64,000 nt of DNA from Gammaproteobacteria bacterium (GCA_029289265.1 JARFTX010000005.1:34452-98451); one strand, 5' to 3'. Positions 6,067 through 57,820 are shown, numbered from the stretch's first letter. Notes: generated from the sequence alone by a model not told the origin. Numbers and translations: made by a program.

Positions 6067-6069
6067 CGC

Positions 6070-7434
6070 TCAGGTCCTCCGGATCGCGAAGCTGTCGACG
6101 TAGGCCTGGGGCTGCGACGGATCGAAGCGTCGGCCCATCACCTCGAAGGACTTGACCGGATCGGCCGGCGGCTCCATCCCGACCTCCTTCATCAGCCGCG
6201 TCGCGTCGGTCGCGAGGAAGACCTCGCGCGCGACCGCGGCGTAGTCGATGTCGCCCTTGATCTGCCCCCAGCGTTTCATCTGGGTGAGGATCCAGATCGC
6301 GAAGGACTCGTACGGGAAGGGATCGAAGTCGATGCGCTGGGGGTCGCGCACGATGTTGCCGAGCCCGTCGGCGAAGGTGCCGGTGAGCACCTGCTCGACC
6401 ACCGTGACCGGCTGGTTGAGGTAGTTGGTCGGCGCGATCGCGGCGGCGATCTCCTTGCGGTTCTCGGGCTTGCGGGCATAGGCGGTCGCGTCGAGGATCG
6501 CCTTGAGGAGCGCCTGGTAGGTGTTCGGCATGGCCGTGACGAACTCGCGGCTCGCCGAGAACGCGCAGCACGGGTGGCCGTCCCAGATCTCCTTCGACAG
6601 CAGGTGGATGAAGCCCACGCCGTCGTAGACCGCCCGCTGGTTGACCGGATCGGGCGCGAGGAAGCCGTCGATGTTGTCGGCGCGCAGGTTGGCGACCATC
6701 TCGGGCGGCGGCACCGAGCGGATCGACACGTCGCGATCCGGGTCGACGCCGTGCTCGGCCAGGTAATAGCGCAGCAGGTAGTTGTGCATCGAGTAGTCGA
6801 ACGGCACGGCGAAGCGGAAGCCCTTCCAGTCCTTCGGGTCGCGACGGTCCTTGTGCTTGAGCGCCAGCGTGATCGCCTGGCCGTTGATGTTCTCGACCGC
6901 CGGCATGGTCCAGGGGATCGGGCTCGAGCCGGCGCCGATCGAGATCGCCAGCGGCATCGGCGAGAGCATGTGCGCCGCGTCGTACTCCCTGGCGAGCGCC
7001 TTGTCGCGGATCACCGCCCAACCGGCAGTCTTGACCACCTCGACGTCGAGCCCGTACTTGGCGTAGTAGCCCAGCGGGTGCGCCATGATGATGGGCGTCG
7101 CGCAGGTGATGGGGATGAAGCCCACCGACAGCCTGGTCTTTTCCAGCGGCCCGATGCTCTCGGCGAAGGCCTCCTTGGCGAGCCCGAGCGGAAACAGCGT
7201 CGAGATCGCGGCCAGCGCCGTGCCGCCACCCACCGCCTTGAGGAAGCGGCGGCGCACCTCGTCCTGGGGAAACAGCGCCCGCATCACCGCGCCCTCGACG
7301 GCGCGATCCTGCAGCGCGCGCGCTTCCAGCGCCTCGGCGCGCTCGTGCTCGGCCTGGCTGTGATGGCGGCCGCAGCTGCAACCGCCGCGGTGCAGGCGGA
7401 CCTTGTAGTCGAACGGATTGCGGAAGGCGGACAT
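6070..7434 (-). CDS. CmpA/NrtA-family periplasmic substrate-binding protein (CynA-like), Tat signal
   Basis: Twin-arginine motif RRRFLKAVGGGTALAA, followed by a NrtA-like body. It is preceded by a roughly 60-aa Cys/His-containing N-terminal segment (see findings). Confidence 0.85.
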   Translation of the reverse strand: MSAFRNPFDYKVRLHRGGCSCGRHHSQAEHERAEALEARALQDRAVEGAVMRALFPQDEVRRRFLKAVGGGTALAAISTLFPLGLAKEAFAESIGPLEKTRLSVGFIPITCATPIIMAHPLGYYAKYGLDVEVVKTAGWAVIRDKALAREYDAAHMLSPMPLAISIGAGSSPIPWTMPAVENINGQAITLALKHKDRRDPKDWKGFRFAVPFDYSMHNYLLRYYLAEHGVDPDRDVSIRSVPPPEMVANLRADNIDGFLAPDPVNQRAVYDGVGFIHLLSKEIWDGHPCCAFSASREFVTAMPNTYQALLKAILDATAYARKPENRKEIAAAIAPTNYLNQPVTVVEQVLTGTFADGLGNIVRDPQRIDFDPFPYESFAIWILTQMKRWGQIKGDIDYAAVAREVFLATDATRLMKEVGMEPPADPVKSFEVMGRRFDPSQPQAYVDSFAIRRT

Positions 7435-8290: not shown

Positions 8291-9213
<923 letters not shown>

Positions 9214-38784: not shown

Positions 38785-39615
38785 ATGGCAGACACGATCT
38801 CAGCGACCCACCGTTTCCTGATCGAGATCGCGGAAGAACTCTCCGCCCGCGACCTCAGCTTCCCGACCTTTCTCGACGCCACGCTGAAGATCCGCATGGC
38901 GCTCAACAAGGCCGACATCACCGCAGAGGAACTCGCCAAGGTCGTTGCGACCGAGCCGCTGCTCTCGGCGAAGCTGGTGAGGCTCGCCAACTCGGTCGCG
39001 ATGAACCCATCCGGCCAGCAGGTCGTCGATGTGCGCACCGCGGTGATCCGGGTCGGCTTCTCGTCGGTGCGCACGCTCGCCATCGCGCTGGCGATGGAGC
39101 AGCTCATGCAGACCAAGGAGATGGGCGACTACGTCAGGTACGCCCGCCCGCTTTGGGAGCACAGCGTCGACGTCGCCGCCCAGGCCTTTGTCCTCGCCCG
39201 GCGACTCACCCGAATCAACCCGCACGAGGCCTTGTTCGCCGGCATCGTGCATAACATCGGCGCCTTCTACCTGCTCGCCCGCATCGCCAGCCGGCCCGAC
39301 GTCGCACCCGACGGCGAGGAACTCACGCGGCTGATCGACGAATGGCAGTCCAGCATCGGCCATGCGGTGCTGTCCGCGCTGGAGATCCCGGACGAGATCC
39401 TCGCGGCCATCGCCGACCAGGAAACCCCCTTCACCGGCGAGATCCCCGCGACGCTCGCGCAAATCCTGTATGCCGCAAACCGTCTGTCCGAGCGCTCTGG
39501 GCATCTGCACTCCGTCGCCCCGGACCAGCACCCGCCGGCGCTGCAACGCGCTGCTGAAATCATCGCTGGCTCACAGGAAGAACGCACGTCGCTGATCGCG
39601 GCGCTGGGGCGGTGA
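38785..39615 (+). CDS. HDOD-domain signalling protein
   Basis: Stand-alone HDOD: FPTFLDATLKIRMALNKADITAEELAKVVATEPLLSAKLVRLANS...GIVHNIGAFYL. ATG at 38785. Confidence 0.8.
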   Translation: MADTISATHRFLIEIAEELSARDLSFPTFLDATLKIRMALNKADITAEELAKVVATEPLLSAKLVRLANSVAMNPSGQQVVDVRTAVIRVGFSSVRTLAIALAMEQLMQTKEMGDYVRYARPLWEHSVDVAAQAFVLARRLTRINPHEALFAGIVHNIGAFYLLARIASRPDVAPDGEELTRLIDEWQSSIGHAVLSALEIPDEILAAIADQETPFTGEIPATLAQILYAANRLSERSGHLHSVAPDQHPPALQRAAEIIAGSQEERTSLIAALGR

Positions 39616-39711: not shown

Positions 39712-40941
39712 GTGGCGCACGGCATCCAGCGGGTACTGCTGATCGCCGAGGGCGCCACACTCGCCCACGTCGGGCGCCCGCTGGTGATTGCGCGTACGCT
39801 CGAGCAGACCGGCGTGGAGGTCGTGTTCGCGCGGCCGCCGGAATACGCCTGGATGACGCAGCACGGGCGCTTCGAGATCGTCGATTTGCGCAGCCAGCCC
39901 CCGGCGGAATTCGCCCGTCGCCTCGACGCCGGTCGCCCGCTCTACGACCTCGACACCCTGGAAACCTATGTCGCCGACGATATCGCGCTGCTGCGCCGAT
40001 TCCGGCCCGACGCGGTGATCGGCGACTTTCGCCTGTCGTTGTCAGTGAGCGCGCGGCTCGAAGGCATCCCCTACGCGACGCTCTGCGATGCCTACTGGAG
40101 CCCGGAGTGCCCGCTCGACCCGATCGTTCCGGTCCTGCCGTTCACGCGCTTCATGCCGATCGGACTCGCCCAGGCGCTGTTCTCGGCCGTGGCGCCCATC
40201 GCCTTCAGGCTGCACGCCCGCCCGATGGAAGCGCTGCGGCGGCGGCATGGACTGCCCGGCTTCGGGCACGACCTGAGGCGCTGTTACACCGATGCGGACC
40301 TTCGCCTGTTCGCCAACCCGCGTGAGCTCTTCCCTCAGGTGCGCCCCCACTCCGGCGCTGCCTTCATCGGGCCCATCGCCTGGTCGCCCGACACCCCGCT
40401 CCCGGATGATTTTCCGTCGGACCCGGATCTCGTGTATGTCTCGATGGGCAGTTCCGGCAATGTCGGCATTCTTGACACGCTGTTCGCGACGCTTGCCTCG
40501 CTGAACCTGCCGGCCGTGGTCGCGACCGCCGGCCGGCCGGCTCCTCCCCCGCCCGCCCGCAGCTGCATCCGGCTGTACGACTTTCTCCCCGGCCGCGAAG
40601 CGATCGCACGCAGCCGACTGGTCGTCTGCAACGGCGGCAGCCCCACCACCAACCAGGCTCTCGCCGCCGGCGTGCCGGTTCTGGGCATTCCGCAGAACAT
40701 GGACCAGTTTCTCAACATGCGGGCGATCGAGCACTACGGCTGCGGGATCGGGGTACGTACCGACCGCTGCACGGCTGCGGCCCTGCATGCCGCCCTGTCG
40801 TCGCTGCTTGCAGGCACTCCTGCGCATCGGGCAGCGCAGCGCGTCCGGGCGGCGATTGCCGCCGGCGAAGGCCTGAGTCCGATTGCGGATGCGATCGGCG
40901 CCTTGCACCGCACCCGGCCGACCGAGCGCGTCGCGACGTAG
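39712..40941 (+). CDS. GT1-family (MGT/UDP-glycosyltransferase-like) glycosyltransferase
   Basis: C-terminal nucleotide-sugar-binding signature LVVCNGGSPTTNQALAAGVPVLGIPQNMDQFLNMRAIEHYGCGIGV. GTG start. Confidence 0.8.
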   Translation: MAHGIQRVLLIAEGATLAHVGRPLVIARTLEQTGVEVVFARPPEYAWMTQHGRFEIVDLRSQPPAEFARRLDAGRPLYDLDTLETYVADDIALLRRFRPDAVIGDFRLSLSVSARLEGIPYATLCDAYWSPECPLDPIVPVLPFTRFMPIGLAQALFSAVAPIAFRLHARPMEALRRRHGLPGFGHDLRRCYTDADLRLFANPRELFPQVRPHSGAAFIGPIAWSPDTPLPDDFPSDPDLVYVSMGSSGNVGILDTLFATLASLNLPAVVATAGRPAPPPPARSCIRLYDFLPGREAIARSRLVVCNGGSPTTNQALAAGVPVLGIPQNMDQFLNMRAIEHYGCGIGVRTDRCTAAALHAALSSLLAGTPAHRAAQRVRAAIAAGEGLSPIADAIGALHRTRPTERVAT

Positions 40942-41021: not shown

Positions 41022-41036
41022 TGGCCTGGAGATTGC
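41022..41036 (+). promoter_or_regulatory. sigma-54 (-24/-12) promoter upstream of PEP-CTERM gene 1
   Basis: TGGCCTggagaTTGCT shows the GG-N10-GC spacing of the TGGCAC-N5-TTGC consensus, 60 nt before the ATG at 41096. An IHF-core-like AATCAAagcgTTG lies at 41003-41015. Confidence 0.6.
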
Positions 41037-41095
41037 TCTATCACCTGCGAAGGCACCGTTGGTTGCCTCGAGACAACTCCCGCAGGAGCCCTGAC

Positions 41096-42121
41096 ATGAA
41101 GAAGAAACTCGCAATCGCCGCCACCGTCGCCGCACTCGGCGCAGCCGGCCAGGCCCAGGCTGCCTTCACCTCGATCTTCGTGAGCCCCGACGGCAGCGGG
41201 TTCGCGAACGCGATCGAGATCACAACCCTCAATTGGCTTGCCGGCAACGCGCTCGCCACAGGTGCGCTGGGGGCCGTCGGCCAGACCCAGGCAGACCTCG
41301 CGGACAATACAATCACCACATTCTATCAAGCGGCCCTGAACACCTTCGTGTTCAACCCTGCAGGCACGTCTACGTCATTTTTGCCTCCAGCCGGATTCGA
41401 GTGGACAGTAACCGCGACGATTGTTGAGCAGGCCGTCGGGGTCGGCGCAGCAACCGCCAGCTTCTTCCCATTCGCGGGTTCGGTGTCGATCTGGTACGGC
41501 CCGCAAAACGCAAACGACATCTCCGGCACTGGCTATGCGGATGGAATCGAAATTCTGCGGGGCACGATCGTGGGCGGTAGTGGCACCTTCACGGATACAA
41601 CCCGCACGGTGTGCAATGCGATCGCCCCGGCACCATGCACCCCGGCTACTGTTCCGACGCTGTTCCCCGATCTTGACCAATTCGGCGCGAACAATGCGCC
41701 CGGAGTGCTCACGCACATCGGCAATGGCCAGTCCGAGATCAAGGTGGATATCGGGGCAAGCGTCGGCGACTTCATCAACCCGAACTTCTTCCTCACGAAC
41801 ATCACCTCCTTCGAGTTCCTGCTCACCGGACTCGAGGACGTGAACGACTCCGGGCAGTTGTTCGCGCCCTTCAACCAGGCCAACCCGTCCGACCTCGTCC
41901 TCGGCGTCGCGCCGTCGTACAGCCTGGTGAACGGGCAGCTGATCAACGGCGGCGACTGCCCGACCGATGCCAACGGCAATTTCACCCAGCGTTGCGACTT
42001 CCACTTCCAGACGCTCAACACGACGTCGTTCCGCGCGGTGCCGGAACCGGGCGCCCTGGCGCTCGCCGGTCTGGGCTTGGGCTTGCTCGGGTTCTTCGCC
42101 CGCCGCCGCACCAGCGTCTGA
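41096..42121 (+). CDS. PEP-CTERM sorting-domain protein (exosortase cargo 1)
   Basis: Sec signal MKKKLAIAATVAALGAAGQAQA. C-terminal VPEPGALALAGLGLGLLGFFARRRTSV (PEP motif, TM helix, Arg cluster). AGGAG ribosome-binding site. The mature part has Cx7C and Cx11C pairs. Confidence 0.88.
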   Translation: MKKKLAIAATVAALGAAGQAQAAFTSIFVSPDGSGFANAIEITTLNWLAGNALATGALGAVGQTQADLADNTITTFYQAALNTFVFNPAGTSTSFLPPAGFEWTVTATIVEQAVGVGAATASFFPFAGSVSIWYGPQNANDISGTGYADGIEILRGTIVGGSGTFTDTTRTVCNAIAPAPCTPATVPTLFPDLDQFGANNAPGVLTHIGNGQSEIKVDIGASVGDFINPNFFLTNITSFEFLLTGLEDVNDSGQLFAPFNQANPSDLVLGVAPSYSLVNGQLINGGDCPTDANGNFTQRCDFHFQTLNTTSFRAVPEPGALALAGLGLGLLGFFARRRTSV

Positions 42122-42220: not shown

Positions 42221-43309
42221 TCAGGCTCGGGCGTCGCCCCCTTCCCACATCAGGCTGTCGAGCGGGCGACGCGTAGAGCGCGCCCGAGGCAGGGCGGCGA
42301 CCCCCACCCGCGCGAGGATGACCGGATGCGTCCCCTGTGTGTCGACACAACGCTCGAAGCGATCGGCCAACCGTCCGATGGCGGCGTCGATTTCCGGCAG
42401 CTTCGATGCCTTGGCGCCTGCTCGGGCATACCAGCGGAAGATCACCGGCGTCATCTCCGGCTGCATATGCAGACCCACCGAATGCGCGACAAGCCAGAAG
42501 CGCTGCATGGATCGGCCGGCGGCGACGAAATCCTCGAGCGTCCGCGGCGCCGTCCGGGCCGCGATCAGCACGTGCGCTGCGCAGTAGATCCCTGGCAGGT
42601 AGTCCAGTTGCACTCTGGGCGCAACCGTGCCCATCAAGTAGCGGTTGAAGAAATCGACCCGCTCCCAACTCTGCATCACCCAGCGCATGAGGCGCGCCGT
42701 GAGCGGATCGACGCCAACCGCCTGGTCGGGGATGCGGTCCTCGCTGAAGCGTGCGTTCCATTCGATCACGTCGCGATGCACCGCATAGGCTTCGGGGCAG
42801 GTGAGGCGAATCTTCGCGTTGTCCCACAGCAGCCCGGCCATCTGCCGCCGCTGCGCGAACGATTCGAAGAACACCACTTCGAAACCCGGCCCCGGCGCCT
42901 CGGCGAGCGCGCATCGCTGCTCGGAGGTGAGCGGGGTGGTCTTCATCGGTCTCCGCTGCACCGTCCGGGAACGGATATGCGCGGCGAGCGGGTCGGGACC
43001 GACCGCCGGGTCGTGCGCGAGCCGCACGTCGTAGATCGGCGCCGTGTCGGGTGTGCCCTCGCGCAGCGTCCACTGCGCCGCCAGCCCGAACGTCGTGGCC
43101 GCAAGGCGCAGGGTCTCGAGCAAGGCCCCGTGCGCCATGTGGCTGGCACGACCCTCGAAGTCGTAGAGGACTTCCCTGCGCGTATCGAAACCGTGAATGG
43201 CGATCCAGTCGTCGGCAACGATCTCGAAGCGCCACGGCTGAGTGTTGTCACCGCTGGGCGCCCAGCGGGTGAGATCGAGGATTTTCAGGAGCGTATCGCG
43301 ATCGGTCAT
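42221..43309 (-). CDS. Acg-like double-domain nitroreductase-superfamily (FMN) protein
   Basis: N-terminus LLKILDLTRWAPSGDNTQPWRFEI (nitroreductase signature). 362 aa, with a second half-domain after IRSRTVQRRPM, as in Acg/Rv3131-type proteins. The ATG overlaps the ThiF stop (ATGA, 43306-43309). Confidence 0.8.
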   Translation of the reverse strand: MTDRDTLLKILDLTRWAPSGDNTQPWRFEIVADDWIAIHGFDTRREVLYDFEGRASHMAHGALLETLRLAATTFGLAAQWTLREGTPDTAPIYDVRLAHDPAVGPDPLAAHIRSRTVQRRPMKTTPLTSEQRCALAEAPGPGFEVVFFESFAQRRQMAGLLWDNAKIRLTCPEAYAVHRDVIEWNARFSEDRIPDQAVGVDPLTARLMRWVMQSWERVDFFNRYLMGTVAPRVQLDYLPGIYCAAHVLIAARTAPRTLEDFVAAGRSMQRFWLVAHSVGLHMQPEMTPVIFRWYARAGAKASKLPEIDAAIGRLADRFERCVDTQGTHPVILARVGVAALPRARSTRRPLDSLMWEGGDARA

Positions 43310-44190
43310 GATGTCTGCACGGCGCGCTTCATGCGCGCGAGTTGCCCGCGCGCGAGCCAAAGGGCCAGGCGCTGGAGCGGGTTGCGATTGCCGCCCGGGC
43401 GCCAGGTTTTCACCATGCGCTGCCGGTAGGCGTCGAATTGATAGCCATGCGGAGCAGGACGCAACCCAGGCCGACCGAGGAGGATTCGCACCGCCTCGGC
43501 GCCGGTCACGCCGGCGCACAACTGGCAGGCGACAATGGTCGAGGGGCCGCGCCGTTCGGCCAGATTGACCCGCGAAGCATCGGCCAGGTAGCCACGCTGC
43601 AGCATCCGCGGAGACAGGCCGAGCAGGAAGCGGATCGACATTTCCTCATCGTCGCAGTCGTCGAAGCAGAAATAGTCGTCGAAGGACATGCCTTCCGGCG
43701 CGAACACCAGAACGGCGGCGCCAAAGCCGAGCGGCGCCGCGGTCACCGCGGGGATGCCCAGCTTGCGGCAGGCGGCGAACACCGCCCGGCGAGCCTCGAA
43801 GGCGAAGAAGTCGAGCCCGTCGACATAGAGCGCCGCATCGGCGAGGAACTCCTCGACGTTCGAGAGGCCGACGCCTCCGGGAAAGCGACGCAGATCGAGT
43901 TCGGGATTGATGTCCGCGGCCATGGCCGCGAGTGTGTCGAGTTTCGGCCGTCCGAGCGAGGAAACCACGGCGCCGGCCTGGCGGTTGAAATTGACGAGAT
44001 CGAAGGTATCGAAATCGGCAATGCTGAATGCGCCGATTCCGAGCCGCGCGAGCGTGAGCAGATGCACGCCGCCGACCCCGCCCATCCCGGCGATTGCCAC
44101 GCGCGAAGCGCGCAGCGTCCGCTGCTCGGCCTCGGTCACCCAACCAATGTTGCGCGAGAAGGCCGCTTCGTAGCCGAATTCGGCGTGCAT
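43306..44190 (-). CDS. ThiF/MoeB/HesA-family E1-like adenylyltransferase
   Basis: Intact nucleotide-binding loop VAIAGMGGVGGVHLLTLARLGIGAFSIADFDTFDLVNFNRQ. 294 aa; no rhodanese domain. Confidence 0.85.
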   Translation of the reverse strand: MHAEFGYEAAFSRNIGWVTEAEQRTLRASRVAIAGMGGVGGVHLLTLARLGIGAFSIADFDTFDLVNFNRQAGAVVSSLGRPKLDTLAAMAADINPELDLRRFPGGVGLSNVEEFLADAALYVDGLDFFAFEARRAVFAACRKLGIPAVTAAPLGFGAAVLVFAPEGMSFDDYFCFDDCDDEEMSIRFLLGLSPRMLQRGYLADASRVNLAERRGPSTIVACQLCAGVTGAEAVRILLGRPGLRPAPHGYQFDAYRQRMVKTWRPGGNRNPLQRLALWLARGQLARMKRAVQTS

Positions 44191-44259: not shown

Positions 44260-45501
44260 ATGTTGACGGCATTCGTGGACGGCATCACGAAACAAACGCG
44301 GCTCGCCGGCCGGAATCTCGTTCGCCAGCGCCGCCGCGCCGCGCTCGCGATGCTGACCATCTGCGGAGGCGTCGTCACCTTTCTGCTCGCCGGGGGATTC
44401 ATCAACTGGATCCTCGACAGCATGCGGGAATCCACCATCCACTCGCAGTTGGGCCACGTCCAGATCGTCCGGCCCGGCTACCTGCGCGACGGGTTGGGCG
44501 ATCCTTACAGCTACCTGCTGCCCGCCGACACCGATGCCGTCACAGCCGAGCGCGTGCCGGCGTTGCGCACCGTGGCGCCACGCCTGGCGTTCAGCGGACT
44601 CGTCAGCAAGGGCGAGGAAACCATCTCGTTCGTCGGCGAAGGCATCGACCCCATTGGCGAAGCGGATATCGGCCAGTCGGTGATGATCGTCCAGGGGCAG
44701 GACCTGACCGCGGCCTCCCCCGACAGCGCCCTGCTCGGCGTCGGCCTCGCGGCGAACCTCGGTGCCGCCCCGGGCGACCAGATCGTCCTGCTTGCGACCA
44801 CCGCGAGCGGCGGCATCAATGCGATCGAGCTCACGATCGCCGGCCTGTTCGCCACGCCTGCCAAGGCCTATGACGACTCCGTGCTGCGGATTCCGATCGA
44901 TAGCGCGCGCACCCTGATGCGTGTCGAGGGCGCGACGAGCTGGGTCGTCCTGCTCGAGCGCACCCGCGCGACCGAGGCCGCCCTCGCCCACCTGCGCACG
45001 CACCTGTCGGCGGAAGAGTTCGAGATCGTTCCGTGGTACGACCTCGCCGACTTCTACAACAAGACCGTGGAGCTCTTCACCCGTCAGGTCGATGTCGTGC
45101 GGCTGCTGATCGCCCTCATCGTCATCCTGAGCATCGGCAACACCTTGTCGATGGCCGTGGTCGAGCGCACCAGCGAGATCGGCACCTCGATGGCGCTGGG
45201 GGTGCGGCGCCGCGGCATCATGACCATGTTCCTCGCCGAAGGCGCACTGCTCGGGATGGTCGGAGGCGTGGTCGGCGTCACGGCCGGAATCTTGCTGGCG
45301 GCGGTGATCTCGTTCGTCGGCATCCCGATGCCCCCTCCGCCCGGCATGGACATGGGTTTCATCGGCGAGATCTCGATATCGCCCGGCCTCGCGCTCGACG
45401 CCTTCTTGCTGGCATTCGTGACAACTTTGCTTGCGAGCCTCTTCCCGGCGTGGAAGGCTTCCCGGATGAACATCGTGGACGCGCTGCGCCAGCAACGATG
45501 A
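44260..45501 (+). CDS. FtsX/MacB/LolCE-type ABC transporter permease 1
   Basis: N-terminal LAGRNLVRQRRRAALAML TM1, a large periplasmic domain, and a C-terminal FtsX module (MALGVRRRGIMTMFLAEGALLGMVGGVVG...ASRMNIVDALRQ). Confidence 0.85.
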   Translation: MLTAFVDGITKQTRLAGRNLVRQRRRAALAMLTICGGVVTFLLAGGFINWILDSMRESTIHSQLGHVQIVRPGYLRDGLGDPYSYLLPADTDAVTAERVPALRTVAPRLAFSGLVSKGEETISFVGEGIDPIGEADIGQSVMIVQGQDLTAASPDSALLGVGLAANLGAAPGDQIVLLATTASGGINAIELTIAGLFATPAKAYDDSVLRIPIDSARTLMRVEGATSWVVLLERTRATEAALAHLRTHLSAEEFEIVPWYDLADFYNKTVELFTRQVDVVRLLIALIVILSIGNTLSMAVVERTSEIGTSMALGVRRRGIMTMFLAEGALLGMVGGVVGVTAGILLAAVISFVGIPMPPPPGMDMGFIGEISISPGLALDAFLLAFVTTLLASLFPAWKASRMNIVDALRQQR

Positions 45502-46721
45502 TCGGAATGATCCTCCGCCTCGCGCTGCGCAATCTCCTGCGCCAACGGATCCGCACGGCGATGACACTCGCCGCGATCGTGTTCGGAGTATCGGGCCTGG
45601 TCGTCTCGGGCGGCTTCGTCCAGGACATCTTCGTCCAACTGGGCGAAGCGATCATCCACTCGCAGACTGGTCATGTACAGGTCGTGCGCAAGGATTTCAT
45701 CGAGCGCGGAACGCGCCGTCCCGAACGCTACCTGATCGACGGACCGGAACAGGTCGCCGCCCAAATCGAGTCCCTGCCCGAGGTCAAGGAGGTCGCGAGC
45801 CGGCTGAGCTTTACTGGCGCGCTCAACAACGGCCGGCGCGATCTGGGCATCATAGGCGAGGGCATCGAACCGGACAAGGAGGCGCGACTGGGAACCTTCC
45901 TGACGATCACGGCGGGACGGCACCTGACCGATTCGGACCTGTTCGGCATGGTCGTCGGACAAGGGGTCGCCCACGCGTTGAGCCTCACACCGGGCGACGT
46001 GGTGACGTTGGTCATGAGTACAGCCGATGGCGCCCTCAACACGCTGGATTTCGAGCTGATCGGAGTATTCCAGAGCTTTTCGCGCGACTTCGATGCGCGC
46101 GCCGTGCGCATCCCCCTCTCGGCCGCCCAGGAGCTGATGCTGACCCCGGGCGTGAACGTTCTGGTCGCCACCCTGCATCGCACCGAGGACACCGACGGCG
46201 CCTACGCGCAGATCGTCGCCGGGCTGGACCCGGAGTCGCTCGAGGCCCATCACTGGCGGATGCTGTCGGATTTCTACGAGAAGACGCTCGACCTCTACGA
46301 CCGGCAGTTCGGCGTGCTACAGCTCATCATCCTCGCCATGGTGCTGCTGTCCGTCGCCAACAGCGTGAATATGGCGACTTTCGAGCGCATGAGCGAGTTC
46401 GGCACCATGCAGGCCCTGGGCAACCGTCGGCGGCACGTCTTCGGCCTCATCGTTGCCGAGAACGTGCTGCTGGGCGCGATCGGCGCAGTGCTGGGGGCGC
46501 TGGTCGGAGTCGCGCTGGCATTGGTGATCTCGGCGGTGGGCATCGCGATGCCGCCGCCGCCCAATGCCAACGTCGGTTACACCGCCGCGATCCGGCTCGT
46601 GCCGGAGACCATCGCCGCCGCCATGCTGATCGGCTTTCTGGCCACTTCGCTGGCGGCGATTCTTCCGGCTCGCCGTGTCTCTTCGGCGGCGGTCGTCGAT
46701 GCGCTCAGACAAGGGGCCTAG
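45498..46721 (+). CDS. FtsX/MacB/LolCE-type ABC transporter permease 2
   Basis: Paralogous architecture (LALRNLLRQRIRTAMTL...QALGNRRRHVFGLIVAENVLLGAIGAVLG...ARRVSSAAVVDALRQ). ATGA overlap with permease 1. Confidence 0.85.
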   Translation: MIGMILRLALRNLLRQRIRTAMTLAAIVFGVSGLVVSGGFVQDIFVQLGEAIIHSQTGHVQVVRKDFIERGTRRPERYLIDGPEQVAAQIESLPEVKEVASRLSFTGALNNGRRDLGIIGEGIEPDKEARLGTFLTITAGRHLTDSDLFGMVVGQGVAHALSLTPGDVVTLVMSTADGALNTLDFELIGVFQSFSRDFDARAVRIPLSAAQELMLTPGVNVLVATLHRTEDTDGAYAQIVAGLDPESLEAHHWRMLSDFYEKTLDLYDRQFGVLQLIILAMVLLSVANSVNMATFERMSEFGTMQALGNRRRHVFGLIVAENVLLGAIGAVLGALVGVALALVISAVGIAMPPPPNANVGYTAAIRLVPETIAAAMLIGFLATSLAAILPARRVSSAAVVDALRQGA

Positions 46722-46722
46722 C

Positions 46723-47496
46723 ATGTCGCTGTTCGACCGTTTCAACCTTGGACATGGCTTCAGCAAGTATTTCCGTGTCGACCCGGCAACCGACGACGCG
46801 ATGCGCGACGAGGTCTTCCGCATTCGCCACGAGGTCTATTGCCAGGAATTGCGCTTCGAGCCCGAACGGGCCGATCGGCGGGAGTGGGACGAGTACGACG
46901 CCCATAGCCTGCACTGCCTGCTGCGCACCAGCCAGTCGCCCCATCAGCCGGTTGGCTGCACTCGACTGGTCCTGACCAACCCGGACGACCGCGGCCAGCC
47001 GCTGCCTTTCGAGCGCACTTGCGCCGCCACGCTGGACCGCTCCATCATCGACCCGGCGCGGCTGCCGCGCGAGCGCATCGCCGAGGTGTCGCGCCTGGCC
47101 GTTCGCGCGAGCTACCGGCGGCGGCGCAACGAAAACGCCTCGCCCATGGCCCTGAGCGAAGAGGATTTCGGCTCGGTGACCCGGCCGCGCTTCCCCTACG
47201 TCCCGATCGGACTCTACCTGGGCGCAATCGCGCTGGCTGCCCGCAATGGCATCGACACGATCTTCGTCCTGACGGAGCCCCGCCTGGCCAGCCATTTCGC
47301 CAAGCTCGGGGTCGATGTCCGGCGCATCGGCGGGCCGGTCGAGCATCGTGGCACCCGCGTGCCGTCGATGATGGACGTCCAGTCCATCATCGCCAACATG
47401 CGCTTCCTGGTGCGGCCGATGTGGCGCGTGGTGCGAGACGAAATCGAACGGGGGTTTTCCGAGGCCCCGCACGCGGCGGCCGACATCGAGCCGTGA
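46723..47496 (+). CDS. N-acyl amino acid synthase, PEP-CTERM/exosortase-system-associated type (GNAT/LuxI-like)
   Basis: MSLFDRFNLGHGFSKYFRVDPATDDAMRDEVFRIRHEVYCQELRFE...RIAEVSRLAV...FVLTEPRLASHFAKLGV matches my recollection of the TIGR03694 family. The ATG lies 1 nt after the permease-2 stop. Confidence 0.82.
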   Translation: MSLFDRFNLGHGFSKYFRVDPATDDAMRDEVFRIRHEVYCQELRFEPERADRREWDEYDAHSLHCLLRTSQSPHQPVGCTRLVLTNPDDRGQPLPFERTCAATLDRSIIDPARLPRERIAEVSRLAVRASYRRRRNENASPMALSEEDFGSVTRPRFPYVPIGLYLGAIALAARNGIDTIFVLTEPRLASHFAKLGVDVRRIGGPVEHRGTRVPSMMDVQSIIANMRFLVRPMWRVVRDEIERGFSEAPHAAADIEP

Positions 47497-47615: not shown

Positions 47616-48755
47616 TCAGCTCATGCTGCGCATCCGGCGGCGCAGGCTGGCCCCGATGCCGAACAGCCCGAGGCCGACCAGCGCAAGACTCGCAGGCTCC
47701 GGCACCTCGATGAAGGTGGTATTGCTCGACGCAAGGAAGAGCTGCTCGAAGCCGTTGTCGATGCGCAGATTGTCGCAACTCGGGGCAATGCGCGGGTCGC
47801 AACCCAGCCACAGCTCGAGGTGCATCGAGTACTCGCTCAGGACCGCGTCGCTGAGCGGGAAGAGCTGGCTCAGGTACTGGTTGAGGAGCGGCACGTCGGC
47901 GGCATAGGCGGCCTGGTTGGCGCCCAGATTGTGGTTGAAGCGGACGATGCCGGCAGCGTTCGAGCACGGCACGATGGGGTTGCCAGCTTGCGTCGAATCA
48001 AGGCAGACCTCGCCGCCGGAGAGCACGTAGTCGGTGATGAAGTTGCCTTGCGCATCGACGCCGATTCCCGGCAGCATCACGTTGCCAGGGTTGTACGTCG
48101 TCGCATCGCCGAGCGGGATGCCGCCGAACCCATACGCGCTCATGTTGTTGCTCAGGTAGAGATGGCGGCCGAACAGGTCGCCGTTCGGGTCGGTGAGCCA
48201 GAGCTTCGCCCAGATCGCGAGGTTCTGATCCCGGTTGGTCTCGTTGTTGTTGAACAGGAACAACGGATTGCCGCCGTCGAGGAAGCTCTTGAGCGCGAAC
48301 AGGCTCGCATCCCAGGTGGTGGCGAGTTGGGTGTGAACGCCTGCCCCACCGCCGGCGTTGGTGGGCTCGATCAGGTTGATCGCCCCTGTGCCGGCGTTCG
48401 GCGCGGTCGCGATGAAATTGGTCGTCGACGCGAAGTCGCCCTGTTGGCCCGACGGGGTCTGGTAGGCGTGTTCGAAGCCGCTGACGTTGGTCGTGACGTC
48501 CTGCCCTCCAGCCCCGGTGTAGATCACCACCAGATCCTTGATCGCTCCCGGTGTCGAGGCAATGTAGTAGGGGTTCCCCGGCCCGGTCTGCTGAGGATTG
48601 AACTCCCAGGCCGCGATCGGCAGCGAATAGACGTTGACGTTGCCGAAGGTCAGGAAGCCGACGCCGTTCAGGTCGAGCAACGCGGCGTTGGCACTGCCGA
48701 CACAGAGCGCACTGGTAAGACCCACGCATCCCAAAAGCATCTTGCTCGATTTCAT
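47616..48755 (-). CDS. PEP-CTERM sorting-domain protein (exosortase cargo 2)
   Basis: Sec signal MKSSKMLLGCVGLTSALCVGSANA. C-terminal VPEPASLALVGLGLFGIGASLRRRMRSMS. GGAG ribosome-binding site. The mature part has Cx12C and Cx7C pairs. Confidence 0.88.
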   Translation of the reverse strand: MKSSKMLLGCVGLTSALCVGSANAALLDLNGVGFLTFGNVNVYSLPIAAWEFNPQQTGPGNPYYIASTPGAIKDLVVIYTGAGGQDVTTNVSGFEHAYQTPSGQQGDFASTTNFIATAPNAGTGAINLIEPTNAGGGAGVHTQLATTWDASLFALKSFLDGGNPLFLFNNNETNRDQNLAIWAKLWLTDPNGDLFGRHLYLSNNMSAYGFGGIPLGDATTYNPGNVMLPGIGVDAQGNFITDYVLSGGEVCLDSTQAGNPIVPCSNAAGIVRFNHNLGANQAAYAADVPLLNQYLSQLFPLSDAVLSEYSMHLELWLGCDPRIAPSCDNLRIDNGFEQLFLASSNTTFIEVPEPASLALVGLGLFGIGASLRRRMRSMS

Positions 48756-48809
48756 GGCGAATTCTCCACATCTGCGGCATGAACCCCATGCCTCTTTGCC
48801 ATGAACAAA

Positions 48810-48824
48810 GCAATTGACGCGCCA
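48810..48824 (-). promoter_or_regulatory. sigma-54 (-24/-12) promoter upstream of PEP-CTERM gene 2
   Basis: The minus strand reads TGGCGCgtcaaTTGCT, one mismatch to TGGCAC-N5-TTGC with exact spacing, 55 nt upstream of the ATG at 48755. An A/T tract lies at 48842-48858, just upstream. Confidence 0.7.
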
Positions 48825-49011: not shown

Positions 49012-50910
49012 TCAGCCCTTCAACGCCGCCTTGATCTGCTCCAGCGTCGAGGGATCCTCGATGGTCGTCAGGTCACCCGCGTCGCGCCCTTCGGCCAGCG
49101 CCTGGATCGAGCGGCGCAGCATCTTGCCCGAACGCGTCTTCGGCAGGCCGGTGATGAAGTGGACGCGGCTCGGCCGGGCGATCGCGCCGAGTTGCTCGTC
49201 GACCTTCTTCATGACTTCCTTCTCGAGCGCGACGCGTTTCTCGGCCGTATCGGCCTTCGAGGCGTCCTTCAGCACGGCAAAGGCCATCGGCATCTGGCCC
49301 TTGACCTCGTCGGCGACGCCGACGACCGCGACCTCGGCAACCGCCGGGTGAGTCTGCACCGCCTCCTCGATCTCGCGCGTGCCGAGGCGATGACCGGCGA
49401 CGTTGATGACGTCGTCCATGCGGCCGAGGATGGTGTGGTAGCCGTTCTCGTCCTTGATGCCCCAGTCGGACGACGAGTACACCACCGGGTTCTTGAAGAG
49501 CGAGAAGTAGGTCGACACAAAGCGCTCGTCCTGGCCCCAGACCGTGGACAGGCAGCCCGGCGGCAGCGGCGGGACGATGCCGACGATGCCCTTCTCGTTG
49601 GCGCCGCACTCGCTGCCGTCCTCACGGAAGATGCGCAGGTCGTAGCCATACACGGGGAAGGCGGGCGAGCCGAGCTTGATCGGGCTCTGCTCGACTCCGC
49701 GGACGATGGCGAGCATCGGCCAACCGGTCTCGGTCTGCCAGTAGTTGTCGATCACCGGGATGCCGAGTTCGTCCATGATCCACTTGTGCGAGGTCTCGTC
49801 GAGCGGCTCGCCGGCGAGGAACAGGTGCTTGAGCGAGGACAGATCGTACTTCTTGAGGAAGGCGGGGTCCTGCTTCTTCAGCACGCGCACGGCGGTGGGC
49901 GCCGAGAACATCACGTTCACCTTGTGATCCTGGACAATCTTCCACCAGATGCCGGCGTCGGGGCGCAGCGGCGTACCTTCGTACATGACAGTGGCCATGC
50001 CGGCGATGAGCGGTCCGTAGATGATGTAGCTGTGGCCGACCACCCAGCCGATGTCCGAGGTCGAGAACATGGTCTCGCCCTCGAAGCCGGTGAAGATATG
50101 CTTCATCGACGCCGCCAGCGCGACCGTGTAGCCGCCGGTGTCGCGCTGCACGCCCTTGGGCTTGCCCGTGGTGCCGGAGGTGTAGAGGATGTACGAGGGC
50201 TCGGACGACTCCAGCCAGGTGACGGGCACCTGGGCGTCCATGTGCTTGGCGCGCAACTCGGCGTAGTCGACGTCGCGTCCGGCCACCCGCGGGAAGCCCT
50301 TGTCGAGGCCGCGGTCGACGATCAATACCTTTTGCGGCGGGAATTCGGCAAGCTTGCAGGATTCGTCGACCAGGTGCTTGTACGGAACGGGCTTGCCGTT
50401 GCGCATGCCGGCATCGGCGCTCACCATCAGCACGGGCTTGGCGTCGTCGATGCGGGTCGCGAGCGAGCCGGCGGCGAAGCCGCCGAACACCACCGAGTGG
50501 ATCGCCCCGATGCGCGCGCAGGCGAGCATCGCAAAGGCCGCCTCGGCGATCATCGGCATGTAGATCAGCACGCGGTCGCCCTTCTTGACGCCGAGATCCT
50601 GGTAGATCGCCGCCATGCGCTCGACCTCGCGCTGGAGTTCGCCAAACGAGTAGATCTTCTCTTCGTTGGTCTCGGTCGAGATATAGATCAGCGCTTTGGC
50701 GTCCGGGCGCTTGGCGGCGTGGCGGTCGACCGCGTTGTAGCAGAGGTTGGTCTCGCCACCCTTGAACCACTTGACGAAAGGCGGATTGGAAAAATCGCAG
50801 ATCTGCGCGGCCGGCTTGTTCCAGTGCACGAGCTGCGCCTGCTCGGCCCAGAATTCGTCGCGCTTGTCGATCGAACGGCGGTGAAACTCCTTGTACGTCG
50901 TCATATACAT
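49012..50910 (-). CDS. prpE: propionate-CoA ligase (propionyl-CoA synthetase)
   Basis: Colinear with E. coli PrpE: FWAEQA, NLCYNAVDRH, YTSGTTGKPKGVQRD, DIGWVVGHSYI, DNYWQTE, LPKTRSGKMLRR. Start is ATG 50910 or 50904. Confidence 0.92.
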   Translation of the reverse strand: MYMTTYKEFHRRSIDKRDEFWAEQAQLVHWNKPAAQICDFSNPPFVKWFKGGETNLCYNAVDRHAAKRPDAKALIYISTETNEEKIYSFGELQREVERMAAIYQDLGVKKGDRVLIYMPMIAEAAFAMLACARIGAIHSVVFGGFAAGSLATRIDDAKPVLMVSADAGMRNGKPVPYKHLVDESCKLAEFPPQKVLIVDRGLDKGFPRVAGRDVDYAELRAKHMDAQVPVTWLESSEPSYILYTSGTTGKPKGVQRDTGGYTVALAASMKHIFTGFEGETMFSTSDIGWVVGHSYIIYGPLIAGMATVMYEGTPLRPDAGIWWKIVQDHKVNVMFSAPTAVRVLKKQDPAFLKKYDLSSLKHLFLAGEPLDETSHKWIMDELGIPVIDNYWQTETGWPMLAIVRGVEQSPIKLGSPAFPVYGYDLRIFREDGSECGANEKGIVGIVPPLPPGCLSTVWGQDERFVSTYFSLFKNPVVYSSSDWGIKDENGYHTILGRMDDVINVAGHRLGTREIEEAVQTHPAVAEVAVVGVADEVKGQMPMAFAVLKDASKADTAEKRVALEKEVMKKVDEQLGAIARPSRVHFITGLPKTRSGKMLRRSIQALAEGRDAGDLTTIEDPSTLEQIKAALKG

Positions 50911-55906: not shown

Positions 55907-57820
55907 TCAACCGCCCGAGGCTCGCGTCTCGAGCGCCTCCCAACGCAGCATCGCCGCCTCGATCTCCTGATCGAGCGCGGCAAGGCGCGCATTGACGCGC
56001 ACGATCTCGGCCGCATCCTGCTGGTAGAGCGCCGGATCGGCGAGCCGCTGCTGCAGCGCGGCCTGTTCGGCTTCCAGCGCAGCGATGCGATCGGGCAACG
56101 CTTCCAGCTCGCGCTTCTCGGCGTAGCCGAGCCTGGTCGGGCGCGCAGACGCGGGCTTTGCCGGCTCGGCCGGGCGTGTGGCCGGCTGCGCCGGCGCCGC
56201 CGATTGCACGCGCGGTTCAGCTTCCGCAAGACGCGCGCGTTGCCATTCCGCATACCCCCCGGCGTACTCGCGCCAGTGGCCGTCGCCCTCCGAGGCGATC
56301 ACCTGCGTCACGACGTTGTCGAGAAAGGCGCGGTCGTGACTCACCAGGAAAAGCGTGCCCTGGTAGCCGTCAAGCAATTCCTCGAGCAGGTCCAGCGTCT
56401 CGATGTCGAGATCGTTGGTCGGCTCGTCGAGCACCATGACGTTGGCCGGCCGCGCGAAAAGCCGCGCGAGCAGCAGCCGGTTGCGCTCCCCGCCCGAGAG
56501 CGACTTCACTGGCGAGCGTGCACGCTGCGGCGCGAAGAGAAACTCGCCGAGGTAGCCGATGACATGCTTGCGCTCGCCGCCGATTTCGACGAAGTCGGAA
56601 CCCGGACTGATGACCTCGGTGAGCGGCAGCTCCGGGTCGAGCTGGGCCCGCAGCTGGTCGAAGTAGGCCACCGCCTGGCGGGTACCTCGCCGTACCGTGC
56701 CCTCGTCCGGAGCGAGTTCGCCGAGGATCAACTTGAGCAACGTGGTCTTGCCCGAACCGTTCGGTCCGATCAGGCCGACCCGGTCGCCACGCAGGATGCG
56801 CGTGGAGAAGTCCTGCACCACCACGCGGTCGCCGAAGCGCTTGCCGACGTGGATCAGCTCGGCCACCATCTGGCCGCTCTGCTCGCCGCGGTCGACGGCG
56901 AACTTGACCGTGCCGAGCCGCTCGCGCCGCGCCGCGCGCGCGAGCCGCAGCGCCTCGAGCCGGCGCACCCGGCCCTCGTTGCGGGTGCGGCGGGCCTCGA
57001 CGCCCTTGCGAATCCACACCTCCTCCTGCGCGAGCACCTTGTCGAAGTTCGCTGCGGCGCGGCTCTCCGCCTCCAGTTCGTCGGCCTTGCGCCGCTGGTA
57101 GTCGGCGAAGCGGCCGGGGTAGCTCGCGAGGCGGCCGCGATCGAGCTCGGCAATGCGGGTGGCGACGTTGTCGAGGAACACCCGGTCATGGGTGATGACC
57201 ACAACCGCGCCGGGGAACTCGCGGATCAAGCCCTCGAGCCAGACAATGCCGTCGAGGTCGAGATGGTTGGTCGGCTCGTCGAGCAGCAGCAGATCGGGTT
57301 CGGCGACCAGCGCACGCGCGATCGCGACCCGCTTCAGCCCGCCACCGGAGAGGTCGGCCACCCGCGCACCGCCGTCGAGCCGCAGTCGCAGCAGCACCGC
57401 CTCGACACGCTGGTTGAGGCGCCAGGCATCGGCCGCCTCCACCTCGTGCTGCAGCGCAGACAGCCGCTCCAACCGCTCCGGGGTGGCCGATTCCGCGACC
57501 TCGTGCATGGCCGCGTGGTAGTCCACCAGCAGTCGCGCCGCATCGCCCAATCCTTCCGCCACGGCGGCGAAGACATCGCACTCGGCGGCGAAATCCGCCT
57601 CCTGGGCCACGTAGGCGACCCGCAGTCCGGGCGAACGCCACACCGTGCCGTCGTCGAGCGCGGCCTGGCCTGCCAGGACCTTGAGCAGGCTCGACTTGCC
57701 GGAGCCGTTGCGGCCGATCAGGGCGACGCGTTCTCCCGCGTCGAGCTGGAAGTCGGCACGGTCGAGCAGATCGACGTGCCCGAAGGCGAGACAGGCGCCG
57801 GAGACGGACAATAAGGGCAT
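55907..57820 (-). CDS. uup: ABC-F family ATPase (Uup-like)
   Basis: Two ABC cassettes (GRNGSGKSS and GPNGSGKTT; LSGGGLKRV and LSGGERNRL) and a C-terminal coiled-coil tail. ATG at 57820. Confidence 0.9.
   Translation of the reverse strand: MPLLSVSGACLAFGHVDLLDRADFQLDAGERVALIGRNGSGKSSLLKVLAGQAALDDGTVWRSPGLRVAYVAQEADFAAECDVFAAVAEGLGDAARLLVDYHAAMHEVAESATPERLERLSALQHEVEAADAWRLNQRVEAVLLRLRLDGGARVADLSGGGLKRVAIARALVAEPDLLLLDEPTNHLDLDGIVWLEGLIREFPGAVVVITHDRVFLDNVATRIAELDRGRLASYPGRFADYQRRKADELEAESRAAANFDKVLAQEEVWIRKGVEARRTRNEGRVRRLEALRLARAARRERLGTVKFAVDRGEQSGQMVAELIHVGKRFGDRVVVQDFSTRILRGDRVGLIGPNGSGKTTLLKLILGELAPDEGTVRRGTRQAVAYFDQLRAQLDPELPLTEVISPGSDFVEIGGERKHVIGYLGEFLFAPQRARSPVKSLSGGERNRLLLARLFARPANVMVLDEPTNDLDIETLDLLEELLDGYQGTLFLVSHDRAFLDNVVTQVIASEGDGHWREYAGGYAEWQRARLAEAEPRVQSAAPAQPATRPAEPAKPASARPTRLGYAEKRELEALPDRIAALEAEQAALQQRLADPALYQQDAAEIVRVNARLAALDQEIEAAMLRWEALETRASGG

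Follow-up and report, generated by a model that had tools for sequence, protein, structure and literature searches.

An FtsX/MacB-type permease pair coupled to a synthase of N-acyl amino acids is probably the inner-membrane half of a split, Lol-like export module

The LolCDE-LolA(-LolB) pathway of E. coli (PDB 7arh, 9rld) combines two paralogous four-TM type VII permeases bearing Sabre/Porter-type periplasmic domains, a separate LolD-clade ATPase and a soluble LolA-superfamily carrier, and uses no membrane-fusion protein. MacAB-TolC is likewise built on permeases with FtsX and MacB_PCD domains and on a MacB/LolD-clade ATPase. A different combination is found in AmeABCD of Castellaniella defragrans and in the DUF1302/DUF1329/BNR/RND clusters of Pseudomonas, where an inner-membrane transporter acts in concert with a periplasmic protein of the LolA superfamily and a DUF1302-type protein of the outer membrane; the Ame system is implicated in hydrophobic-compound export (PMC6394551; bioRxiv 10.1101/2020.07.04.188060). 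The oxazolone pathways encoded by OxzA/OxzB and TyzA/TyzB/TyzC proceed by N-acylation, ATP-dependent cyclisation and flavin-dependent desaturation (PMC10404671, PMC12856293), and the papers describing them mention no transporter and no link to PEP-CTERM proteins or exosortases.

Here we describe a locus that touches on all of these. In the window, by which we mean the whole 64,000-nucleotide stretch of gammaproteobacterial DNA that was analysed, two tandem permease genes, perm1 and perm2, precede a gene for N-acyl amino acid synthase (NAS) (Table 1). The pair very probably supplies the inner-membrane half of a conserved export module of the envelope, made up of five genes, that resembles LolCDE-LolA in each of the features given above and that is split in this genome. 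Besides the two paralogous type VII permeases, the module comprises an ABC ATPase, a periplasmic protein that is LolA-like and an outer-membrane beta-barrel of DUF1302-like type.

Table 1. Features of the permease locus (window coordinates) and of the second half of the module on contig C51
Feature	Coordinates	Strand	Remarks
GT1/MGT-family glycosyltransferase	39712-40941	+	TIGR01426 (under cut-off), PF06722
PEP-CTERM protein 1 (PepA-like)	41093-42121	+	PF07589; floc_PepA 64.8 bits, under cut-off 80
Acg-type nitroreductase-superfamily flavin oxidase	42221-43312	-	TyzC/OxzB-C-terminal-like; overlaps ThiF stop
ThiF-like E1 adenylyltransferase	43306-44190	-	NF006077 461.6 bits (cut-off 266); PF00899
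perm1	44260-45501	+	FtsX/MacB-type (type VII ABC) permease, LolC/LolE-like fold, 413 aa
perm1 PMPPPP 'shoulder' loop	45325-45342	+	between TM3 and TM4, periplasmic side
perm2	45498-46721	+	perm1 paralog, 40% identical; PF12704 + PF02687
perm2 MPPPP loop	46548-46562	+	equivalent to perm1 PMPPPP
NAS	46723-47496	+	257 aa; N-acyl amino acid synthase associated with the PEP-CTERM/exosortase system; follows perm2 by 1 nt
PEP-CTERM protein 2	47616-48758	-	PF07589; convergent with NAS
DUF1302-like outer-membrane barrel	C51:30933-32267		DUF1302 match 40 bits (gathering score 23.2)
Orphan MacB/LolD/DevA-type ABC ATPase	G000:C51:32432-33175		no permease alongside
LolA-like gene	C51:33220-34002		PF17131 LolA_like

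Wherever the pair is present, perm2 lies directly 3' of perm1. At the junction between them, caacgATGAtcgg, the perm2 ATG at 45498 creates a 4-nt ATGA overlap; an in-frame ATG at 45507 fits the N-termini of orthologs (MLxKLAxRN) more closely and would leave a 5-nt gap like that in Thauera, and the genes are tightly coupled under either start. A single base separates the perm2 stop (TAG, 46719-46721) from the NAS ATG at 46723, and a scan for sigma-70 promoters and terminators across 43.9-47.7 kb returned nothing beyond chance level. Both proteins match PF12704 (MacB_PCD) and PF02687 (FtsX) above the gathering scores, and hydropathy places TM1, a periplasmic domain of ~220 aa and three further TM segments in each. 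With an AF2 model of perm1 (pLDDT 94.9) as query, Foldseek ranked LolE and LolC at the top (TM 0.70) and MacB next. The FtsX C-terminal domain, the MacB-like periplasmic core domain and the 1+3 TM arrangement place the pair, whose perm1 orthologs are 47-73% identical, among the type VII ABC permeases. The Pro-rich loop is a signature of this family: across 99 perm1/perm2 sequences I355, M357, P358 and P361 never vary and P356, P359 and P360 hardly do, and the loop is missing from all ten other FtsX domains in the genome. A preliminary description of the locus had reported the ATGA overlap and the 1-nt gap joining the three genes, the MacB/LolC/LolE layout of each permease and an unusual Pro-rich final loop common to both, and all three observations stand, with 45507 as an additional possible start.

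The pair is not the housekeeping Lol system. Against the lolCE equivalog TIGR02212 (cut-off 362), perm1 scores 108.8 and perm2 78.7 bits, so both fail, and contig C119 carries a true LolCE (485 bits) together with LolD (C119:9160-9819), the only ATPase in the genome to pass TIGR02211 (326.9 bits, cut-off 308; the C51 ATPase reaches 210.8 bits). The idea that the pair might be the cell's only LolCE, which had been named earlier as fatal to the proposal of an extractor for the lipo-amino acid product or for lipid-modified cargo, is therefore rejected.

The locus itself contains no ATPase gene. A six-frame scan for the motif [AG]xxxxGK[ST] found zero matches between 39.7 and 48.8 kb, in agreement with the earlier statement that no Walker-motif ORF lies in this interval. 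On contig C130, which holds the window, the LolD model has only two matches, at 4.6 and 8.3 kb of the window and none in the permease locus. A frameshifted or very short ATPase gene had been raised as a further objection, but tblastn with the C51 ATPase across 39-49 kb left no remnant (best E=4), and together with the Walker A scan this rules out a degraded ATPase in the locus. Genome-wide inventories of FtsX and LolD-type proteins, which include the search for orphan LolD/MacB-type ATPases that the preliminary description had proposed, left the window pair without an ATPase and an ATPase on contig C51 without an adjacent permease.

The best models for the C51 protein are MacB, DevA and LolD, and its ATPase motifs are intact. 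It is flanked only by a LolA_like (PF17131) gene and by a gene for a DUF1302-like barrel. The LolA-like protein is an ortholog of PDB 3BUU (E=8e-86), and the barrel is modelled as all-beta, with a resemblance to porins and AlgE (pLDDT 75, medium confidence). These three genes directly follow those of an XrtA exopolysaccharide locus and lie at its edge: XrtA, an amidotransferase, the stp1 glycosyltransferase, FemAB, a TIGR03015 ATPase, a TIGR03016 outer-membrane protein, a chain-length determinant and an export protein score above cut-off there. If contigs C130 and C51 adjoin, the two halves of the module are separated by at least ~60 kb. The LolA-like carrier and the outer-membrane barrel that accompany the ATPase are not visible from the window alone.

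Other genomes link the two halves. The tandem pair occurs in 25 of the 151 genomes of the order that we sampled. C51-type ATPase orthologs, which score at least 318 bits (62-74% identity) against at most 243 bits for paralogs, were found in 24 of these 25 and in none of the 126 genomes without the pair (24/1/0/126), a co-occurrence for which Fisher tests ignore phylogeny; only G100 departs from this, and there a partial match to the ATPase sits between the genes for the barrel and perm2. In most other lineages the ATPase lies 0.2-8 kb from the pair, and the full block of five genes stands unbroken in 18 of 20 order-level loci and 28 of 80 named loci, the latter set coming from an alignment-based scan (perm1 alone as query found 4). 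Taxa with the contiguous form include Propionivibrio, Dechloromonas, Azonexus, Accumulibacter, Rhodocyclus, Thiobacillus, Sulfuricella and Binatia. The other named loci comprise 30 with full flanks that show no ATPase within ~10 kb and 22 that are too short for judgement; counting full and short flanks together, about 45 of the 80 have the ATPase-less order 'NTR ThiF / perm1 perm2 NAS / ACS', and these come from Thauera, Azoarcus, Aromatoleum, Parazoarcus, Denitromonas and Zoogloea. The split arrangement is specific to this Thauera/Azoarcus/Zoogloea group. Mirror-tree correlations were moderate (r 0.4-0.6) and could be accounted for by shared species history, so this result is consistent with pairing but not discriminating.

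Co-occurrence across genomes, with synteny in other lineages, indicates that the permeases' ATPase is displaced rather than missing. The models of the C51 protein, its co-occurrence with the pair and its adjacency elsewhere mark it as the putative partner nucleotide-binding domain of the MacB/LolD/FtsE clade that a type VII system would have. The same data support it as a dedicated, co-inherited subunit. The earlier proposal of a LolCE-like heterodimer with an ATPase encoded elsewhere is thus upheld by the orphan gene, the co-occurrence and the synteny, but the part of that proposal in which the ATPase is borrowed is not.

Could a shared ATPase drive the pair instead? The housekeeping LolD and a YbbA-like orphan (C114:293707-294444) are both of the LolD/MacB clade, and the latter is the genome's second-best LolD-model match and has no adjacent permease. 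However, LolD adjoins its own LolCE, C114-type orthologs occur in 114 of the 151 genomes irrespective of the pair, and C114 more plausibly partners an ATPase-less duplicated permease on C18, whereas the dedicated C51-type ATPase tracks the pair and adjoins it in most lineages. We regard a shared ATPase as highly improbable, and the YbbA-like protein is rejected as the partner on its distribution, which is independent of the pair. That the permeases need no ATPase at all, serving for example as a passive scaffold or as a regulator of periplasmic enzymes, would fit the conservation of the ATPase-less locus over ~45 Thauera/Azoarcus/Zoogloea loci, but is extremely improbable. Residues of the cytoplasmic coupling helix are retained in perm1 and perm2 (E302, R303, E306, G308, T309 and G314 show little or no variation across the 99 sequences), and the six split-form genomes examined each keep exactly one C51-type ortholog (76-79% identity). 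Scaffolds of the FtsX family still require an ATPase; FtsEX, for one, depends on its own.

The split module differs from each of these known systems. Unlike LolCDE-LolA, its carrier is of the PF17131 LolA_like (3BUU) type and not LolA proper, its outer-membrane acceptor is a beta-barrel where Lol has the lipoprotein LolB, its permeases have the conserved MPPPP periplasmic loop, and it is limited to XrtA-positive genomes (24 of 25) and here occupies two loci. MacB is a homodimer fused to its ATPase, whereas the module has an unfused ATPase and, we infer, a heterodimer of two paralogs, as well as its own barrel in place of TolC. There is also no space for a MacA/HlyD adaptor gene, as the genes of contiguous five-gene loci abut by their coordinates (for example, in L019, 9407-10633, 10633-11841, 11838-12602, 12694-13467 and 13575-14933). 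The inner-membrane engine of AmeABCD is an HAE3 RND transporter, not an ABC type VII pump; its periplasmic protein is DUF1329 (~450 aa) rather than PF17131 (~260 aa), and its BNR/COG4447 protein has no counterpart in the conserved block, which consists of ABC components, LolA_like and barrel only.

How the split arose and how the module would work can be outlined. The permease pair probably moved beside NAS and gained translational coupling with it, arriving at a position divergent from the ThiF/nitroreductase (oxazolone-synthetase-like) genes and between two PEP-CTERM genes, while the ATPase, LolA-like gene and barrel remained where the XrtA exopolysaccharide locus ends. A perm1/perm2 heterodimer driven by a dimer of the C51 ATPase would use mechanotransmission to lift an acylated molecule out of the inner membrane's outer leaflet and pass it to the LolA-like carrier; the carrier would then bring it to the barrel, which would insert it into the outer membrane or let it cross. 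Heterodimer formation, transport direction and cargo are all inferred in this scheme.

The most likely cargo is an N-acyl-amino-acid-derived lipid made by the adjacent NAS, ThiF and nitroreductase genes. NAS scores 264.5 bits against TIGR03694 (cut-off 112) and also matches PF13444 and PF21926 (FeeM). The ThiF-like gene diverges from perm1 across a 69-bp gap, and its OxzB/TyzB-like product is that half of a split oxazolone synthetase which acts as the cyclase; the chemistry of the family has been described (PMC10404671, PMC12856293). The flavin oxidase matches NF047509 (122 bits, under cut-off 199) and the ThiF-NTR fusion models NF005901 and NF011424, in these over their C-terminal halves and again under cut-off; its gene adjoins ThiF in 14 of 20 related loci. 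Taken with NAS, the ThiF-like and nitroreductase-like genes thereby correspond to the acylation, cyclisation and desaturation activities of the Oxz and Tyz pathways. All 25 module genomes have a NAS or ThiF gene, and in most loci ThiF/NTR or NAS lies within 10 kb of module genes. Within XrtA-positive genomes this lipid-gene association is weak (24/24 vs 21/27, p=0.016, Fisher, phylogeny ignored), and it counts against the link that NAS/oxazolone pathways in other bacteria operate without such a transporter. Unlike the Oxz and Tyz systems, the acyltransferase here is translationally coupled to ABC permeases; ABC genes or permeases are mentioned neither in Haft 2006 nor in the floc papers on Aquincola and Acidovorax or those on oxazolones.

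The neighbourhood also points to the exosortase system. XrtA scores above cut-off in 24 of 25 module genomes, compared with 27 of 126 others, and all but one of the 27 genomes with the TIGR03694 NAS family have XrtA. The module is best seen as an accessory because only 24 of 51 XrtA-positive genomes carry it; its co-occurrence with XrtA, the C51 half abutting the XrtA locus and the PEP-CTERM genes flanking the window half all fit an XrtA/PEP-CTERM accessory. Might the same split module instead move exosortase-processed PEP-CTERM proteins, held by a lipid anchor that is perhaps NAS-derived, from the inner to the outer membrane in Lol style? The permease-NAS operon is flanked by two of the only three PEP-CTERM genes in the genome, 71 of 100 related loci of 20 kb contain PEP-CTERM-like ORFs (a raw count), the module keeps company with XrtA, and the nearest folds, LolE and LolC, carry acylated protein. 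Yet a lipid anchor on PEP-CTERM proteins is not reported in Haft 2006 or the floc papers, and the module cannot be a general PEP-CTERM sorting step because about half of XrtA-positive genomes lack it; we consider this cargo unlikely. A full-text literature search for PEP-CTERM with LolA, ABC or FtsX found nothing relevant. More doubtful is a broader version in which the module is a second 'Lol pathway' dedicated to the exosortase system. NAS, ThiF and the nitroreductase would then produce a reactive acyl-amino-acid lipid, PEP-CTERM proteins cleaved by XrtA would use this lipid as their acceptor or anchor, and perm1/perm2 with their ATPase, the LolA-like carrier and the DUF1302-like barrel would take the tethered proteins or the anchor to the outer membrane and the floc matrix.

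With a lipid as its most likely cargo, the module would give about half of the sampled XrtA genomes a Lol-like route made of an ABC extractor, a LolA-fold carrier and an outer-membrane barrel. Its position beside lipid genes and PEP-CTERM cargo genes makes it a concrete, testable candidate for the missing transport step of the exosortase system, and bears on what exosortase A attaches PEP-CTERM proteins to, how these reach the surface and why lipo-amino-acid synthases accompany the system. Floc formation by wastewater bacteria, among them Zoogloea, Thauera and Accumulibacter, depends on exosortase/PEP-CTERM systems. A lesson for annotation is that FtsX permeases that look 'ATPase-less' may each be one half of a split operon, whose other half can be traced through phylogenetic profile and sister-lineage synteny.

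A sigma-54 motif scan found no site upstream of perm1/ThiF and no convincing motif common with the C51 ATPase/LolA-like intergenic region. Sigma-54-like sites lie at 41022, upstream of PEP-CTERM gene 1, and at 48810 on the minus strand (one mismatch), upstream of PEP-CTERM gene 2. The GT1/MGT glycosyltransferase recurs beside the module in several related loci.

The region's high G+C content yields many spurious ORFs, and the real genes of the window locus were picked by family matches (see table). The close junctions reported in the preliminary description are borne out by the sequence: perm1 and perm2, the tandem FtsX/MacB-type permease genes, overlap at an ATGA, and a single nucleotide separates perm2 from the PEP-CTERM/exosortase-associated N-acyl amino acid synthase gene (NAS). 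An alternative perm2 start, the second ATG at 45507, better fits the ortholog N-termini and leaves a 5-nt gap to perm1, the same as in Thauera butanivorans.

Genes of the permease locus (window positions)
Gene	Position	Strand	Basis or context
HDOD protein	38785-39615	+	family match
GT1 glycosyltransferase	39712-40941	+	family match
PEP-CTERM protein 1	41093-42121	+	family match
Acg-type nitroreductase-superfamily protein	42221-43312	-	overlaps ThiF-like E1 stop
ThiF-like E1	43306-44190	-	divergent from perm1
perm1	44260-45501	+	family match
perm2	45498-46721	+	family match
NAS	46723-47496	+	family match
PEP-CTERM protein 2	47616-48758	-	convergent with NAS
acyl-CoA synthetase	49012-50910	-	family match

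Both permeases carry PF12704 and PF02687 and have the expected layout of one TM helix, a periplasmic domain and three further TM helices. The perm1 structure model is confident (pLDDT 94.9); the nearest solved structures are LolE and LolC (TM 0.70), then MacB, HrtB, YtrF and YbbP, the same ranking as by sequence search. The pair was rejected as the housekeeping LolCE (its members score 109 and 79 bits where the cut-off is 362), and it is not the cell's only one, as had been entertained, for C119:7716-9825 encodes a true LolCE, at 485 bits, together with a LolD that passes its cut-off at 327 bits. The shared Pro-rich loop noted earlier (IPMPPPPG in perm1, IAMPPPPN in perm2) connects TM3 with TM4 on the periplasmic face. 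Its near-invariance in 99 family members, together with its absence from the genome's ten other FtsX domains, marks it as a signature of this permease subfamily.

The locus was said to have no ABC ATPase gene, and the searches agree. Of the 49 ABC ATPase domains found in the genome with the LolD model, only two are on the window's contig, at window 4.6 and 8.3 kb, and neither tblastn nor a six-frame Walker A scan detected an ATPase, frameshifted or short ones included, between 39 and 49 kb. The ABC ATPase domains that the window does contain, these two (4568-5206, minus; 8300-8929, plus) and 56318-57775 (minus), are 28-35% identical to the candidate partner described below and 9-39 kb from the locus; one of these ATPases has two nucleotide-binding domains. 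Among the genome's 12 FtsX domains, a LolD/MacB-clade ATPase lies near MacB and a further FtsX permease (both C96), the duplicated permeases on C24 and C114, FtsEX (C116) and LolCDE (C119), and none lies near the window pair (C130) or a 958-aa duplicated permease on C18.

The genome-wide search for orphan LolD/MacB-type ATPases proposed earlier returned two without a permease, on C114 and C51. The first (C114:293707-294444, plus) is YbbA-like, with 265.6 bits on PRK10584, below the cut-off of 336; judged from ORF translations alone, its neighbours resemble selD and hpnE/hpnD. It was rejected as the partner because its orthologs, in 114 of 151 genomes, do not track the pair. It may instead form a second split ABC pair with the C18 permease (C18:42106-44982, minus), which has a YbbP-like layout. 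The second, C51:32432-33175, has MacB, DevA and LolD as best models and intact Walker A, Q-loop, signature, Walker B and H-loop motifs. The cytoplasmic coupling-helix block of both paralogs (E302, R303, E306, G308, T309, A312, G314) is completely or almost completely conserved, and these conserved residues and motifs point to continued ATPase use by the permeases.

Phylogenetic profiles, each searched in one fixed set of 151 genomes of the order, point to the C51 ATPase. The tandem pair occurs in 25 genomes from 18 genera. C51-type matches fall into two well-separated groups, orthologs with 318 bits or more (62-74% identity) and paralogs with no more than 243 bits; the orthologs occur in 24 genomes, every one with the pair (both, pair only, ATPase only, neither: 24/1/0/126). 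The lone exception, genome G100, has a partial ATPase match at 72% identity between the barrel gene and perm2. The profile search missed this match (about 135 aa; contig C16, locus L036 7973-8761), and the gene may be truncated, frameshifted or divergent. Pairwise-distance correlations among the five families discussed below are positive (r 0.4-0.63; perm1-ATPase 0.52, perm1-perm2 0.63), although species history could be the cause.

On the 3' side of the C51 ATPase gene is that of a 445-aa protein which ends in an aromatic residue and matches DUF1302; the all-beta model of this protein matches porins and AlgE. Divergent from the ATPase gene is a PF17131 LolA_like protein, the ortholog of structural-genomics entry 3BUU (Nitrosomonas NE2245; E=8e-86). 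The ATPase and LolA-like genes are 44 bp apart, and this gap contains a sigma-54-like match with 2 mismatches, TGGCATAAGGATAGC (C51:33201-33215, plus); it lies just 5 nt 5' of the LolA-like ATG, a position unfit for a normal promoter. Directly beyond lies a canonical exosortase A (XrtA) locus, with members above cut-off for the TIGR03027 export protein, TIGR03007 chain-length determinant, TIGR03016 outer-membrane protein, TIGR03015 ATPase, FemAB, stp1 glycosyltransferase, XrtA, amidotransferase and O-ligase.

By tblastn mapping, the LolA-like, ATPase, barrel, perm1 and perm2 genes form one block in 18 of 20 order-level loci, in variable order but always abutting. Across 80 named loci collected with a perm1 alignment, the five are contiguous in 28 (Propionivibrio, Dechloromonas, Azonexus, Accumulibacter, Rhodocyclus, Uliginosibacterium, Thiobacillus, Sulfuricella, Hydrogenophilales, Casimicrobiaceae and Binatia); in 30 with full flanks an ATPase is absent from the surrounding 10 kb or so, and the other 22 do not reach far enough for a call. 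The window's ATPase-less arrangement (nitroreductase and ThiF, then perm1, perm2 and NAS, then acyl-CoA synthetase) recurs in about 45 of the 80, in Thauera, Azoarcus, Aromatoleum, Parazoarcus, Denitromonas and Zoogloea. Each split-form genome examined has exactly one C51-type ortholog (72-79% identity), with the LolA-like and barrel genes beside XrtA export genes; in Azoarcus sp. L1K30 about 95 kb of a single scaffold apparently separates the halves, assuming that contig C1 is Scaffold_1. The contiguous block elsewhere and the single displaced ortholog in the split clade argue that the ATPase-less state reflects the splitting of the five-gene module in one lineage and no new way of working. 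The puzzle of the missing ATPase comes down to something ordinary, a split operon. The earlier suggestion of an ATPase encoded elsewhere thus stands, in that the C51-type gene tracks the pair and adjoins it in contiguous lineages, but "borrowed" does not, as pair and ATPase are one module.

A Lol-like route is the best-supported reading of this module. A perm1/perm2 heterodimer, with the C51 ATPase as its motor, would pull an acylated molecule out of the inner membrane, the 3BUU-type LolA-like protein would ferry it across the periplasm and the DUF1302-like barrel would accept it on arrival at the outer membrane. The studied analogue of the LolA-like and barrel parts is AmeABCD, implicated in export of hydrophobic compounds (PMC6394551), which likewise has a DUF1302 outer-membrane protein and a LolA-superfamily periplasmic protein; its inner-membrane part, however, is an RND transporter, whereas the module has ABC permeases and an ATPase. 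Neither the five-gene module nor an ABC/FtsX/LolA-like link to PEP-CTERM systems was found in the searched literature (Craig et al. 2011 lay outside its scope), and the permease machine is an uncharacterised variant of a known transporter type.

XrtA is above cut-off in 24 of the 25 module genomes, compared with 27 of the 126 others. All 25 have the TIGR03694 NAS (17 genomes), the NF006077 ThiF (16 genomes) or both; 21 of the 27 module-less XrtA genomes also have NAS or ThiF, so the extra association within XrtA-positive genomes is weak (p=0.016, phylogeny ignored). The genes are more strongly linked by position: ThiF (nitroreductase present or not) is found within 10 kb in 14 of 20 loci and NAS in 7, and in the split clade NAS directly follows perm2. 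The NAS/ThiF/nitroreductase trio matches OxzA/OxzB and TyzA/B/C, makers of N-acyl-oxazolones in pathway papers that mention no exporter (PMC10404671, PMC12856293). The most likely cargo would be a free N-acyl-amino-acid or oxazolone lipid. A bolder alternative is that lipid-tethered PEP-CTERM proteins are carried. A PF07589 HMM search and regex scan found only three PEP-CTERM proteins in this 98.5%-complete genome; two of their genes flank the operon, and the third is at C92:~5516-6158 (plus). By raw count, 71 of 100 related loci contain PEP-CTERM-like ORFs, so PEP-CTERM genes are linked as well. Sigma-54-like -24/-12 sites lie upstream of both flanking genes (41022; 48810, minus strand), and a motif scan found none upstream of perm1.

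Two contigs labelled as Lysobacterales and Phycisphaerales MAGs (L054, L081) carry a perm1 that is 64-70% identical to the betaproteobacterial gene of the window, beside the same ThiF neighbour, and are probably misbinned Rhodocyclaceae contigs, not distant occurrences. In Zoogloea dura (L006 8717-13362, and L007), a SAM-dependent methyltransferase takes the place of NAS 3' of perm2, there is no ThiF, and perm1 is preceded on its own strand by a nitroreductase-like gene, so the permease pair does not always have the same biosynthetic partners. The same species has a one-strand paralogous trio (L016 4791-7816, on G001:C18) of an ATPase sharing 54% identity with the C51 type, one 461-aa FtsX permease whose loop is WTPPG, not MPPPP, and a LolA-like protein, which suggests a wider family of ABC-plus-LolA_like systems with the XrtA-linked module as one branch.
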